From IMG/VR virus record IMGVR_UViG_2703718871_000023: DNA of 3,361 bases. One strand, 5' to 3'. Of the stretch, positions 80 through 3,361 are shown one piece after another. Both the position numbers and the translations under genes were made by a program. This stretch comes from a virus (Duplodnaviria; Heunggongvirae; Uroviricota; Caudoviricetes). The notes beneath the pieces were generated by a model. The model did no database searches. It saw only the letters and a program-made list of their open reading frames with translations, and was not told where the DNA came from. Each line of letters opens with the position of its first letter. The stretch's first letter is position 1.

Positions 80-304
80 ATGAACCAACTCAAACAATCG
101 CAATCACTATCAGATCGCGTAATCCGTGAGGATGAATGCCGTAAGTTAACTGGAGTGTGCCGCACTACACGTTACGAACTGGAGAAAAAAGGGCGCTTTC
201 CGTCACGTCTTAATCTGGGCGGTCGTTCTGTAGGGTGGCTGCTGTCCGAGGTTATGGAATGGGTTAAAAGCAGGGATCGTATTAATTCAGGTAAGGCAGC
301 GTAG
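80..304 (+). CDS. alpA: AlpA-family phage regulatory protein (Vis/excisionase-like winged-HTH DNA binding protein), 74 aa
   Basis: Translation MNQLKQSQSLSDRVIREDECRKLTGVCRTTRYELEKKGRFPSRLNLGGRSVGWLLSEVMEWVKSRDRINSGKAA has the AlpA/Vis layout I recall: TG..R.T.Y helix-turn-helix, then FP...LG.RSVGW...E...W near the C-terminus, at the typical ~70 aa size. I chose ATG 80 over the ORF-track start at 44 because GAGGG (66-70) lies 9 nt upstream of 80, while ATG 44 has no Shine-Dalgarno. Family assignment is from memory, not a search. Confidence 0.85.
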   Translation: MNQLKQSQSLSDRVIREDECRKLTGVCRTTRYELEKKGRFPSRLNLGGRSVGWLLSEVMEWVKSRDRINSGKAA

Positions 305-320
305 GGGGAACATATGACAC

Positions 321-350
321 ATAAAACAAAGGCGACCTGGGGCGGTCGCC
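321..350 (-). terminator. Rho-independent terminator for the minus-strand transcript (GC-rich hairpin followed by a U-tract on the minus strand)
   Basis: Plus strand reads GGCGACC (331-337), TGGGGC (338-343), GGTCGCC (344-350): a 7-bp stem with 6 GC pairs and a 6-nt loop. On the minus strand the hairpin is followed by TTTGTTTTAT (complement of 321-330). On the plus strand it is followed by AATGGGAAAACAC with no U-tract, so it looks unidirectional. It sits about 90 nt past the stop of the minus-strand gene 442-624. Confidence 0.6.
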
Positions 351-397
351 AATGGGAAAACACTAAACATAAGCCCGAACATCATAGCGATTTGCTG

Positions 398-437
398 GCT
401 GGTGGGCAATGTGCTCAGTGTGCTGGCTTGCTGGTGG
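398..437 (+). other. Two tandem Chi octamers (5'-GCTGGTGG-3') in non-coding DNA, embedded in an imperfect direct repeat
   Basis: Exact GCTGGTGG at 398-405 and 430-437, same orientation, 32 bp apart, inside the repeat GCTGGCTGGTGG (394-405) / GCTGGCTTGCTGGTGG (422-437). They lie between the stop of the minus gene (442) and its terminator. Whether they act as Chi sites depends on the host being E. coli-like. Confidence 0.5.
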
Positions 438-441
438 ACTA

Positions 442-624
442 TCAGCCTTTTGGTTCTATGCCTTCTTTGCGTAGCTTGTCACGACAGGCATTTTTAACCC
501 ATGAACTGAAATTACCAGGCCCAGCAACTTCGTTAATTTGTTGCAACAATGTGTCTTCGAAGCGGATGTTTTTCTTTGTGCTGCCAGAGCGATCAAATTT
601 TGGTTTCTCATTTTTTTCTTGCAT
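442..624 (-). CDS. Small basic YlcI/YnfO-like (DUF3950-like) protein, 60 aa; possible small DNA-binding regulator
   Basis: Translation MQEKNEKPKFDRSGSTKKNIRFEDTLLQQINEVAGPGNFSSWVKNACRDKLRKEGIEPKG is protein-like and matches the pattern I recall for prophage YlcI/YnfO proteins (basic N-terminus, KNIRF...I, then G.GNFS.WV..ACR..L). An in-frame TAA lies 5 codons upstream of the single ATG. It has its own terminator (321-350). The RBS is weak (GGTGG about 9 nt upstream). The overlapping plus-strand frame translates to low-complexity sequence. Family name is from memory. Confidence 0.65.
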   Translation of the reverse strand: MQEKNEKPKFDRSGSTKKNIRFEDTLLQQINEVAGPGNFSSWVKNACRDKLRKEGIEPKG

Positions 625-646
625 TGGTACGTACCACCGTTATAAA
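619..646 (+). promoter_or_regulatory. Candidate sigma70-type promoter for the rightward operon (-35 TTGCAT, 16-bp spacer, -10 TATAAA)
   Basis: TTGCAT at 619-624 and TATAAA at 641-646 with a 16-bp spacer that is filled by palindrome copy 1. The predicted start near 653 would put palindrome copy 2 just downstream. The -35 match is weak and this is a by-eye call only. Confidence 0.3.
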
Positions 647-670
647 CTGAAACCCAATGGTACGTACCAT
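625..670. promoter_or_regulatory. Pair of identical perfect palindromes TGGTACGTACCA; candidate operator sites between the divergent minus gene and the plus-strand operon
   Basis: TGGTACGTACCA at 625-636 and 658-669, each its own reverse complement. The second extends to a 14-bp perfect palindrome ATGGTACGTACCAT (657-670). Centres are 33 bp apart. Copy 1 abuts the start codon of the minus gene and lies in the spacer of a candidate rightward promoter. The motif is directly observed; the operator role is inference. Confidence 0.55.
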
Positions 671-769
671 ATTGAAGATACGCAACCATTAAATACAGCG
701 AAGCCCCGCAGTGGTGGAACACTCGCAGGGCTTCTAACCACCAACGATAGCAACAGTATCGAGGTAGCT

Positions 770-970
770 ATGAGAAATCATACCACACACCCGCAAGGGC
801 GGGACTTGCACAACCTGAATAAATTCACCTGGCGTTTTATCGCCCTGAGCACGGCACAACCGCGCGTGATTACCATTGAGGCCACCAGCGAACAGGAAGC
901 ACGCCAGCAATCCCCGGCTGGCTGCGTGATGCTATTCGCTGCCCGTATTCGCCAGGGGGTAGGCTTATGA
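770..970 (+). CDS. Small protein, 66 aa, first gene of the operon; possibly Icd-like host cell division inhibitor family (tentative)
   Basis: ATG 770 is preceded by GAGGT (761-765). The stop TGA 968-970 overlaps the next start ATG 967-969 (ATGA coupling). Translation MRNHTTHPQGRDLHNLNKFTWRFIALSTAQPRVITIEATSEQEARQQSPAGCVMLFAARIRQGVGL recalls Icd-like proteins of P4-like prophages (F.WRF.A ... E.EAR ... FAAR), from memory and unverified. The ORF track reports this frame open from 314, but the upstream part looks non-coding. Confidence 0.5.
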   Translation: MRNHTTHPQGRDLHNLNKFTWRFIALSTAQPRVITIEATSEQEARQQSPAGCVMLFAARIRQGVGL

Positions 971-1868: not shown

Positions 1869-2168
1869 ATGAAACTTAAATATTCTGGCTTAACTGCCAG
1901 TGGCAACACTCACCCTAAATTTACGCGCGGTGATATTTACCGCGACCAGTACGGCGGTACGGTAATGATTAAGGGCGTGGCGGGACGGTGCGTAACTTAC
2001 CGCCGTGAAGGTTACGAATATGATTGCGTGATGCCTGTTTATCAGTTCCGGCGTGATTTTTCTCTGGTACAGACCGCGCCGCATAACGTGCCCACCAGCA
2101 GGGAGAAAGCACGCGCCAATATTCAGAAGATGAAAAACATGATTAACGGATTCAGGGGCAAGAAATGA
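1869..2168 (+). CDS. Small protein, 99 aa, possibly DUF4222-like (tentative)
   Basis: ATG 1869 with GGAG (1855-1858) upstream. Its stop TGA 2166-2168 overlaps the ATPase start ATG 2165-2167. Translation MKLKYSGLTASGNTHPKFTRGDIYRDQYGGTVMIKGVAGRCVTYRREGYEYDCVMPVYQFRRDFSLVQTAPHNVPTSREKARANIQKMKNMINGFRGKK. The core (YRD...G.V.I.GV.GR.V.Y.R.GYE..CV.P...F) resembles what I recall of enterobacterial prophage DUF4222 proteins; unverified. Confidence 0.6.
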   Translation: MKLKYSGLTASGNTHPKFTRGDIYRDQYGGTVMIKGVAGRCVTYRREGYEYDCVMPVYQFRRDFSLVQTAPHNVPTSREKARANIQKMKNMINGFRGKK

Positions 2169-3361
2169 AAAGCGCACCGAACTTAAAAAAACAGCCTTAC
2201 GACAAGATGACCGAAGTCATCATTTTTGCGGGTAGTGATGCGTGGGCACATGCGAAACAGTGGCAGGAACAGGACGGGCGACTGGCTGGCGATAATGTGC
2301 CTCCCATTGTGCTGGCTGATGATCAACTGGATGAACTGGCAGACCTGAGAATCATCGACGAGGGGCGCTATTGTGTCCGGCTGTACAAGGCAGGCCACAT
2401 CAGGCCATCAAATATTAATGCCATTGCGCACAAGCTGGCGGCGGCGGGCGTAACTGATGCGAATTATTACCCCGAAGGGATACACAGCCAGAAGCGGGAG
2501 AACTGGCGCGAATATCTGGAACGGGAGCGGGGGAAAAAGCCAGGGGAAGAACACCACCAGCGAAAAACCACGCTACCGATGAGCGTTGGATCTGCCGGAT
2601 ACGACACGCAATTAGATTACGTGGTAAAGGGGATTATTCCGGCATCGTCGCTTTGCAGCATATACGGGGCGAGCGGTTCCTATAAATCATTCCTTGCGGG
2701 TTCGTGGGCGTGTCACGTTTCCACGGGCCGCCAGTGGGGAGGCCGCAGGGTGGCGCATGGCGCTGTTCTCTATGTGGTTGGTGAAGGCGGTATCGGCGTT
2801 CCGCGTCGTGTAAAAGCCTGGGAGGTTGTGCACGGTGAGCAGGTGAAAAATCTGTATCTGGTAAACCGTCCCATCTTTCCGGCGGTCCCGCTTGATGTTG
2901 ATGAAATGGTTATCGCTGCCCGTCAGGTGGAGCGGGAAACGGGTAAACCTGTACGCATGATTATTCTGGATACGCTGGCGCGTTGCTTTGGTGGGAATGA
3001 TGAAAATGATTCCCGTGATATGGGGGCGTTTATCCGTGGTTGTGACGAACTGAAACGACGCACAGGGGCCACGGTGCTGGTGGTTCACCATTCCGGCAAG
3101 GATGAGACGAAAGGCGCGCGCGGTTCCAGTGCATTTCGTGCATCACTGGATGCTGAATACCGGATACGCAGGGAGGACGCAGGAAGCGAAGCGCTGGTTA
3201 TCTCATGCACCAAAATGAAGGACGCGGAGGAACTCAAAGAGGCTGCCTATGATTTGCGGGTGGTGGAGCTTTTTACCGACGCTGACGGGGAGTTAATCAC
3301 GTCGCTGGTGGTGGTGGATAAGCCGCGCCCTCCCGTTGAACTGGAGCGCATCGAGGAGGCA
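2165..3361 (+). CDS. RecA-fold replication ATPase (AAA_25 / RepA-like helicase-type domain), probable satellite replication or primase-associated protein; 3' end truncated by the window (399 codons, no stop)
   Basis: The frame is open from ATG 2165 (AGGGG 6 nt upstream) to the last base of the window, which is why the stop-delimited ORF track does not list it. Motifs: P-loop-like IYGASGSYKSFLAG (2660-2700), Walker-B-like MIILDTLA (2957-2980), and VLVVHHSGKDETKGARGSSAFRASLDAEYRIRRE, which resembles the RepA/AAA_25 sensor region. The first ~160 aa are an unassigned N-terminal region. Confidence 0.85.
   Translation, partial: MKSAPNLKKQPYDKMTEVIIFAGSDAWAHAKQWQEQDGRLAGDNVPPIVLADDQLDELADLRIIDEGRYCVRLYKAGHIRPSNINAIAHKLAAAGVTDANYYPEGIHSQKRENWREYLERERGKKPGEEHHQRKTTLPMSVGSAGYDTQLDYVVKGIIPASSLCSIYGASGSYKSFLAGSWACHVSTGRQWGGRRVAHGAVLYVVGEGGIGVPRRVKAWEVVHGEQVKNLYLVNRPIFPAVPLDVDEMVIAARQVERETGKPVRMIILDTLARCFGGNDENDSRDMGAFIRGCDELKRRTGATVLVVHHSGKDETKGARGSSAFRASLDAEYRIRREDAGSEALVISCTKMKDAEELKEAAYDLRVVELFTDADGELITSLVVVDKPRPPVELERIEEA

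Follow-up and report, generated by a model that had tools for sequence, protein, structure and literature searches.

The window, a stretch of 3,361 nt of viral DNA, carries seven exact copies of GCTGGTGG, the octamer recognised by RecBCD of E. coli, and two of these Chi sites form a tandem pair between two convergent genes. With a probability of about 0.6, the pair is part of a Chi saturation that selection maintains in a whole family of satellites (at about 1-2 sites per kb and with both strands occupied), and RecBCD would then spare and recombine their DNA.

Genes of the window and the parent element

By its predicted genes (Table 1) and by its near-identity to the element described below, the window is identified as the early region, from alpA to RepA, of an E. 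coli phage-inducible chromosomal island of the capsid-forming kind (cf-PICI). The gene for the RepA-family helicase runs past the window end and is cut off at 3361. The ylcI/ynfO-family gene is convergent with alpA and is probably the regulator of a divergent icd operon. The families matched by the icd-like gene bear the names of a host cell division inhibitor and, in PHROGs, of a 'transcriptional repressor'.

The DUF4222 protein led to a contig, L103, that is 99.5% identical to the window over its whole length. The element on this contig is about 14.6 kb long, lies beside rcnR (rcnR/yehA) in an E. coli-type chromosome, and ends at the right junction. The gene order is int, DUF6387, alpA, the window genes, SSB, and PerC, and in the last part major capsid, prohead protease, portal, head closure, connector, HNH, and small and large terminase. 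Phage_capsid, Peptidase_S78, Phage_portal, HCP, connector, HNH, Terminase_4, and TerL, followed by the end of the element, were recognised both in L103 and in a second relative, L094. This capsid and terminase set is coded outside the window itself and has no tail or lysis genes with it. The layout of integrase, alpA, regulators, and replication genes is that of a PICI, and the relatives have the same arrangement.

Parts of the window are 94-100% identical to elements in complete E. coli genomes. Related elements were found in 1847 of 5426 such genomes, at up to six places per genome; they are integrated at tqsA, rcnR, cspD, and roxA, and their replication and packaging modules vary. No match to the window was found by megablast among 50,697 phage records. 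As the window matches E. coli elements at these identities (94-100%, and 99.5% for the element at rcnR of an E. coli-type chromosome), its host uses GCTGGTGG as Chi, in agreement with the initial annotation. Chi of Pseudomonas is GCTGGCGC.

Recombinase, annealase, exonuclease, and RecBCD-inhibitor families of NCBIfam, PHROGs, and Pfam were not matched by ORFs of the window or by unannotated ORFs of the relatives L093 and L094, and the small ORFs without known function could conceal a RecBCD inhibitor. An SSB gene is carried by some relatives.

Table 1. Predicted genes, Chi sites, and other features of the window.
Feature	Position	Strand	Basis and remarks
alpA, excisionase-type helix-turn-helix regulator	80-304	+	PHROG 2790, E 1.9e-18; RefSeq in relatives; Pfam Phage_AlpA in L103
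Intrinsic terminator of ylcI transcript	321-350	-	Hairpin 331-350 (GGCGACC/GGTCGCC), T tract 330-321; terminator scan
Imperfect direct repeat bearing both Chi sites of the pair	394-442	+	17-nt units 394-410 and 426-442; 82% identity, spacing 32
Chi 1 of tandem pair	398-405	+	Exact GCTGGTGG; inside invariant block GGCTGGTGGGCAAT, 397-410
Chi 2 of tandem pair	430-437	+	Exact GCTGGTGG; 4 nt past ylcI stop
ylcI/ynfO-family small gene	442-624	-	NCBIfam NF041551, E 1.8e-7; RefSeq in relatives
icd-like gene	770-970	+	NCBIfam NF033153, E 2.7e-18; PHROG 6196, E 4.7e-45
Chi	882-889	-	In icd-like gene; codons ACC AGC, Thr-Ser
DUF4222 gene	1869-2168	+	Pfam PF13973, E 2e-23
Chi	2092-2099	-	In DUF4222 gene; Thr-Ser
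RepA-family (AAA_25) replicative helicase	2165-3361	+	PHROG 2850, E 1.8e-220; RefSeq 'helicase RepA family protein'; AAA_25 in L103
Chi	2554-2561	-	In RepA helicase gene; His-Gln
Chi	3076-3083	+	In RepA helicase gene; CTG GTG, Leu-Val
Chi	3304-3311	+	In RepA helicase gene; CTG GTG, Leu-Val
Four small hypothetical ORFs besides the named genes	Within window

The tandem pair and its surroundings

The pair is located 3' of alpA, between alpA and the ylcI/ynfO gene, and its two sites are the only ones of the window outside annotated genes; the other five are coding. Judged by their sequence, both octamers between the genes are true Chi sites. As the initial annotation had described, they lie 32 bp apart (start to start) in the same orientation, in an imperfect direct repeat. 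The units GCTGGCTGGTGGGCAAT (394-410) and GCTTGCTGGTGGACTAT (426-442) were found in a repeat search, in which TGCTGGCT was also present twice, at 393 and 421. The placement of the pair in non-coding DNA stands in so far as RefSeq annotates nothing there in near-identical relatives, but the pair also lies inside a stop-free plus-strand frame of 221 codons that extends from the stop codon of alpA to that of the icd-like gene. From 305 to 441, a ribosome-binding site with ATG at 314 (rated strong) is followed by the terminator, a conserved block, a variable patch at 374-397, Chi 1 with its flank, and Chi 2.

Conservation of the pair in related elements, a point for which the initial annotation had turned to homologous elements, was found. 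In the intergenic alignment of 12 diverse PICIs, GGCTGGTGGGCAAT (397-410) is the longest invariant run. Chi 1 and its 3' flank are unchanged in all 12 relatives, even where the adjoining bases are scrambled; in the 24 bases 5' of the block (374-397), lineages differ at more than half of the positions. Both Chi sites are present at the 32-bp spacing in six of the 12 aligned relatives and also in the rl0044 element (L095), and elements that keep the pair in this way include A34, VG35A2, 2014-01-7375, ECONIH2, STEC2018-607, and rl0044. Chi 1 is lost and Chi 2 retained in L096. In Citrobacter amalonaticus (L013), a homologue of Chi 2 in a recognisable Chi 2 context is located 6 nt past the stop of a minus-strand gene. 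A similarly flanked Chi lies 1.8-2.3 kb upstream of RepA (1.77 kb for the pair of the window) at six of the 10 loci from other genera of Enterobacteriaceae, namely Superficieibacter, Leclercia, Kosakonia, Phytobacter, Kluyvera, and Trabulsiella, where positional equivalence is inferred from the flanking sequence alone.

The 3' flanks of the sites are not of the most active kind. Chi activity is raised, without this being required, by A or G at nucleotides 4-7 of the 3' flank (Taylor et al. 2016). These nucleotides are ATGT for Chi 1 and ATCA for Chi 2. The Chi sites of the PICIs represent 62 distinct sequence contexts, and none of the 62 has one of the best tetramers AAAA, AAAG, AAGG, and AAGA, so there is no enrichment of optimised flanks.

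The main reason for keeping the pair might be a hotspot of recombination at the border between modules: in Chi-stimulated exchange between PICIs that share a cell or newly enter it, the int-alpA integration module would be shuffled against regulatory, replication, and packaging modules, with protection of DNA as a secondary effect. In 708 E. coli genomes, the points where homology breaks off are clustered at 418-426 and 442, flanking Chi 2, and two overlapping sets of matches, from 1 to 442-462 and from 314-323 to 720, share only the segment with the Chi sites. Also in agreement with exchange at this point, the Chi 1 block GGCTGGTGGGCAAT is common to three lineages with unrelated sequence to its right, in one of which its bases are the last codons of a different minus-strand gene; genomes may carry up to six related places, and a rearrangement of the chromosome of strain A34 has its ends in two PICI integration sites. 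A hotspot as the main reason is nevertheless unlikely. Selection for evolvability is second-order and weak, and Chi-stimulated exchange spans kilobases 5' of Chi rather than one point. The patch 374-397 is variable although it lies directly 5' of Chi 1, which misfits leftward homogenisation from a Chi cut, and the coding regions with about one Chi per kb, kept at synonymous sites, are left unexplained.

It is similarly improbable that the block is constrained for a cause other than RecBCD, such as a 3'UTR or small RNA of ylcI, a site bound by a protein, or coding sequence, real or remnant, with Chi as an incidental part of it. The conserved block extends 5-6 nt past the Chi 1 octamer, to GGCTGGTGGGCAAT(G), and a constraint unrelated to Chi could act there. 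The minus-strand RNA from 447 to 318, that is, the 3'UTR upstream of the terminator, folds better than its shuffles (z = -2.98), and the terminator stem is kept in 10 of 11 relatives. However, the fold of the alignment supports pairing in the terminator only, while the stem upstream of it shows no compensatory changes and is disrupted in KE21-type sequences. The plus-strand fold of the stretch is no better than its shuffles, and when the complete window was scanned with Rfam at E <= 1, there were only sub-threshold matches at chance level and no C4/CI-type immunity RNA. A match to isrD at 325-371 was rejected, as it represents the terminator.

As to coding, the frame from the alpA stop to the icd stop is open in nine of 11 elements, a 218-aa protein is predicted in it by one gene caller, and its Ala-Gly-Gly-Gln-Cys motif is preserved as Gly-Gly-Gln-Cys in L096 despite the loss of Chi 1. 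On the other side, substitutions at 305-441 and 625-769 show no bias towards third codon positions, and the 152 N-terminal residues match no protein family in NCBIfam and PHROGs; on these two grounds the frame was rejected as the cause of the conserved block. Chi 2 and the Chi sites of other genera have the octamer in common and differ in their flanks, which also speaks against such a constraint, and a constraint of any of these kinds leaves unexplained that enrichment extends over the whole element.

Chi density in the family, orientation, and codon usage

The seven sites were found by an exact-match scan of both strands of the whole window. All six listed in the initial annotation are present, but its total was one too low, as the site at 2092-2099 had been overlooked. 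Its estimate of about 0.1 sites expected at random was reproduced by dinucleotide-preserving shuffles, in which the mean was 0.10 and the maximum two; none of 200 shuffles reached seven, and enrichment across the window, as had been claimed, is evident. With the rate of the host as baseline, the Poisson probability of seven Chi sites in 3.36 kb is about 1e-5. The E. coli chromosome has 1008 Chi sites in 4.6 Mb (0.22 per kb in K-12), about one per 4.6 kb, and the average of one per 4-5 kb given in the initial annotation was right.

Related E. coli elements have 0.9-1.9 Chi sites per kb, and the chromosomal DNA that flanks them has 0.257 per kb (22 in 85.6 kb). The density in the elements is about 4-9 times that of the host, at an element G+C content of 46-51%. 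The element of L103 carries 17 sites in 14.6 kb, and its left flank of 5.7 kb has none. Four other E. coli elements have 14, 16, 19, and 15 sites (1.1-1.9 per kb), and five further cf-PICIs 14-16 each; because related elements have common ancestry, such counts are not fully independent. In parts of the elements that are not homologous to the window, the density is still 1.0-2.4 per kb. Family contigs in IMG/VR, recovered by the terminator sequence, have 0.55-0.89 per kb (n=5, too few for statistics). Chi is the commonest octamer of four E. coli elements, with 64 copies against 26 for the runner-up. The runner-up shares seven bases with Chi by overlap.

For a comparison among hosts, 80 loci with relatives of RepA were taken, one genome per species, and grouped by clade and host. 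The closest RepA clade in Enterobacteriaceae (10 loci, flanks included) has 0.59 Chi sites per kb, 100 on the plus and 21 on the minus strand. The density is 0.02 per kb at 25 loci, of which 24 are from Xenorhabdus (RepA 65-76% identical), 0.07 per kb in more distant RepA islands of Enterobacteriaceae hosts, and 0.06 per kb in other Enterobacterales. Chi richness is therefore a trait of the PICI lineage in Chi-enriched hosts and not of the RepA family. No replacement octamer was found in the Chi-free Xenorhabdus relatives, where only A-rich words and words resembling ribosome-binding sites are over-represented.

The E. coli PICIs have Chi in the two orientations in almost equal numbers, 36 sites on the plus and 28 on the minus strand, and further elements have 10-11 plus to 3-6 minus. 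Dense Chi in both orientations would suit protection from breaks anywhere, as expected also if the sites were a self-mimicry against defences fed by RecBCD, by which fewer degradation products would lead to less acquisition of CRISPR spacers and the satellite would evade adaptive immunity. In published discussion, Chi limits spacer acquisition on its 5' side. This origin of the density has a low probability: no sequence feature is specific to it, and it uses the same RecBCD-Chi interaction as the main explanation, from which it is inseparable here.

Codon usage was considered in the initial annotation as a possible cause of the coding sites. The sites at 3076 and 3304 are in Leu-Val frames as it had stated, but codon usage fails to explain the coding copies, as five were observed in the window and 0.32 expected after shuffling of synonymous codons. 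In three related elements, 31 were observed against 3.2 expected, and none of 1000 shuffles reached 31; in genes of the host flanks, 15 were observed against 4.25. The ratio of observed to expected is 9.8 in the elements and 3.5 in the host genes, and resampling with the codon usage of the host gave an equally low expectation. Antisense coding sites are enriched like the sense ones (12 observed, 1.16 expected). In the satellites, the coding density of Chi is about four times that of the host and the excess over codon expectation about three times as large, so after codon correction, too, they exceed the host background that the initial annotation had set as a comparison.

Chi sites are also conserved where the amino acid sequence leaves the codons free. 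In 18 orthologous groups from 16 loci, Chi was kept in 322 of 443 comparisons across genera with identical amino acids, when 96 are predicted by octamers of the same phase and 115 by octamers of preferred codons. These comparisons are phylogenetically correlated, but the controls come from the same sequence pairs, and divergence is accounted for. At synonymous sites, Chi survives across genera 3-4 times as often as the control octamers, and in the most diverged class it is conserved in 64% of cases against 12-16% for the controls. An origin of the excess as a side effect of composition, codon usage, amino-acid content, or a long stay in the chromosome is highly improbable and was rejected after the shuffles, the flank comparison, and the conservation at synonymous sites: the five coding sites of the window do lie in Leu-Val, Thr-Ser, or His-Gln frames and host genes also exceed codon expectation, but the density is 4-7 times that of the flanks despite the G+C content of the elements, antisense and sense sites are equally enriched, conservation goes beyond preferred-codon controls, and not one Chi is present in the 11,624 bp of phage P4 (X51522).

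Proposed role of RecBCD and comparison with known systems

Starting from the sites, their enrichment, its independence of codon usage, and their conservation, which are demonstrated, we infer every step that involves RecBCD. The host enzyme probably spares and recombines the Chi-rich satellite DNA rather than degrading it. A satellite without a recognisable recombination module or RecBCD inhibitor would nevertheless expose double-strand ends, and cos-cut concatemers, linear DNA after injection, tails of rolling circles, and restriction breaks are candidates for them. From such an end, RecBCD would meet a correctly oriented Chi within about 1 kb, where degradation would stop, the DNA would be nicked, and RecA loaded. 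The preserved DNA could then be used in recombination, that is, for the formation of circles or concatemers, for repair against sister or resident copies, and for exchange of modules. As one Chi alone is not recognised every time, two copies 32 bp apart would raise the chance of recognition per passage.

The pair lies on the plus strand, on which the terminase genes are also coded, and would be active towards RecBCD moving from the side of replication and packaging towards alpA-int. If cos is located upstream of terS, plus would be the active orientation for an enzyme that enters at the right end of a genome packaged with terS first. The near balance of orientations points to protection against breaks or ends at both sides, not solely at the packaging end. 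Some observations fit a role of RecBCD less well, namely the balanced strands; the 3' flanks, which are not optimal; and, with L094 (SW070917) linearised at a cos that is assumed to lie directly upstream of terS, the distance of about 6 kb from the terS end to the first active Chi. Gam, encoded by many helper phages, would render Chi irrelevant in the donor cell.

A more far-reaching proposal is tentative. Enterobacterial PICIs and cf-PICIs may be the most Chi-dense natural replicons noted, with one step of their life cycle dependent on RecBCD and RecA of the host instead of on the helper phage; the pair would be a RecBCD switch and a point of module exchange. Survival of injected or cos-cut linear DNA, formation of concatemers for packaging, or recombination with resident islands could be this step, and the tandem pair at the alpA/ylcI junction would serve as a dedicated switch of high efficiency that guards the int-alpA establishment module.

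In the best reading of these data, PICIs would join the class of mobile elements with no Rec module and high Chi, as a member not previously described. Lambdoid phages without a Rec module are rich in Chi, and their growth is improved by RecBCD (Zheng et al. 2025, PMC12315714; Bobay et al. 2013, PMC3784561), and phage LLS has one Chi per 1.86 kb with an orientation bias of 20:3 (PMC12315714). The satellites resemble this class as mobile elements of enteric bacteria in which no recombinase or RecBCD inhibitor was detected, with Chi as the leading octamer, with enrichment beyond codon usage, and with cos-type packaging that requires concatemers. The cf-PICI relatives outside E. coli are moreover biased 100:21 to the strand presumed to be active from the right end, with cos assumed upstream of terS. 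They differ in size (8-15 kb against autonomous phages of 40 kb), in a density 2-4 times higher (0.9-1.9 against about 0.54 per kb), in the almost equal orientations of the E. coli PICIs, and in the conservation of one intergenic position, here that of the tandem pair. With a ratio of 36:28 in E. coli against 20:3 in LLS, the model of one open end during packaging is not directly transferable. A full-text search of the literature found papers on Chi-rich phages but none that connects Chi with PICIs or other satellites, and the survival of satellite DNA against host nucleases without anti-RecBCD genes was not addressed in the literature searched. The new finding is best filed as the addition of satellites to these elements, of which they are the densest when compared with the cases in the cited papers on Chi-rich phages.

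If the Chi load is functional, transfer of satellites would be set by the RecBCD status of donor and recipient and by the Chi content of the element. The rule of having either an own recombination module or many Chi sites would be widened from phages to their parasites, and the extreme mosaicism of PICI islands might be accounted for. A Chi density several-fold over that of the host would also be a cheap signature for the discovery of satellites in enterobacterial genomes. PICI-type satellites move virulence, resistance, and defence genes among enterobacteria.

Phage P1, as cited in PMC12315714, has 50 Chi sites in 94.8 kb, one per 1.9 kb, and needs RecA and RecBCD. Like the PICIs, it has a high density, Chi as the top octamer, and makes use of host recombination. 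It differs in that it circularises by recombining its terminal redundancies, while the PICIs related to the window have cos or cos-like packaging and are established by an integrase, and in that the density of Chi is about 2-3 times higher in these PICIs. In work of Dabert, Ehrlich and Gruss from 1992, Chi reportedly protected linear and rolling-circle plasmid DNA. Attenuation of RecBCD degradation of a DNA tail by a correctly oriented Chi is the same mechanism as that proposed for the pair in the initial annotation; those plasmids were engineered and had one or few Chi sites, and the pattern of the satellites is natural, family-wide, and on both strands.

Phage P4 is likewise an integrative satellite of enterobacteria that has an AlpA/Vis-type regulator, a gene of icd type, and a primase-helicase of its own, but it differs in the complete lack of Chi. 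P2 and P4 package from monomeric circles, and P4 would for this reason need concatemers or end protection less. The E. coli chromosome uses the same octamer, also above codon expectation, and has a Chi bias of about 3:1 towards the orientation productive for replication. The satellites differ from it in their several-fold higher density and in having little orientation bias despite their fixed orientation of insertion.

Chi in regulatory cassettes, phage P4 and Xenorhabdus

In some cf-PICIs, a two-gene regulatory cassette coded on the minus strand, composed of a small hypothetical gene and a gene of the ylcI family, is present as a tandem duplicate. Each copy has a plus-strand Chi at its distal gene: in the first cassette, the octamer overlaps the 3' end of this gene (in the related element L100, Chi 7537 and gene end 7533), and in the second, it is located within the gene (L100: Chi 8347, gene 8250-8477).

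The archetypal satellite, phage P4 (L098, AC No. X51522.1, positions 1-11624), has 0 Chi octamers when both strands are counted, in sharp contrast to the PICIs. AlpA-, icd- and primase-type genes are common to P4 and PICIs. The octamer GCTGGTGG is also nearly missing from the Xenorhabdus loci (L014-L037 and L050), which encode a RepA 65-76% identical to that of the window; it occurs there at 0.02 per kb, in islands and flanks alike. The words AAAAGTGA, AAGTGAGG, AGTGAGGA and GTGAGGAA were each found in 6-8 copies, in several of these loci. Combined, they spell AAAAGTGAGGAA and probably represent contexts of ribosome-binding sites.

Open frame and repeats between alpA and the icd-like gene

From the alpA stop to the stop of the icd-like gene, a plus-strand frame of 221-368 codons is free of stops in nine out of 11 elements, while 6-26 stops are present in the remaining five frames of this stretch. 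In these nine elements, it crosses ylcI in antisense and both "intergenic" stretches, and in five loci it begins at the codon directly after the alpA stop, in the same frame as alpA. A protein of 218 aa was predicted from the open frame by one gene caller. No codon-position bias was identified in the frame outside icd, and no protein family was matched by the N-terminal part of its product in NCBIfam and PHROG searches. One possibility that could account for the frame staying open is a translation-coupled read-through that leads from alpA to the replication operon.

The 12-bp perfect palindrome TGGTACGTACCA is present in two exact copies 33 bp apart, with 0 expected by chance. The pair resembles operators, and the YlcI-family protein is plausibly their ligand. 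A strong hairpin coincides with position 699, the left edge of the stretch in which most E. coli relatives match the window at 94-96%. Units of a 19-nt imperfect direct repeat flank the minus-strand terminator hairpin on both sides.

Location of the structural features
Feature	Sequence	Position	Strand	Remark
Tandem cassettes		L100 7533-8714; L102 7539-8720	-	
Stop-free frame		window 305-970	+	also in L002, L003, L011, L012, L093, L094, L095, L097
Palindrome, copies 1 and 2	TGGTACGTACCA	window 625-636, 658-669		divergent region, ylcI start (624) to icd-like gene (770)
Strong hairpin	GAAGCCCCGCAG...CGCAGGGCTTC	window 699-733		immediately upstream of icd-like gene
19-nt imperfect direct repeat	GGGAACATATGACACATAA, GGGAAAACACTAAACATAA	window 306-324, 354-372		74% identity

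Flanks of the island in E. coli A34

The left neighbour of the island in E. coli A34 (L002, AC No. NZ_CP028741.1, locus 13500-25000) is rcnR, as it is for L003, L004 and L103 at the rcnR-thiM site, and its right neighbour is clpS-clpA, which in L093 borders the cspD site on its far side. These flanks suggest that two resident PICIs recombined in A34, resulting in a chromosomal rearrangement.
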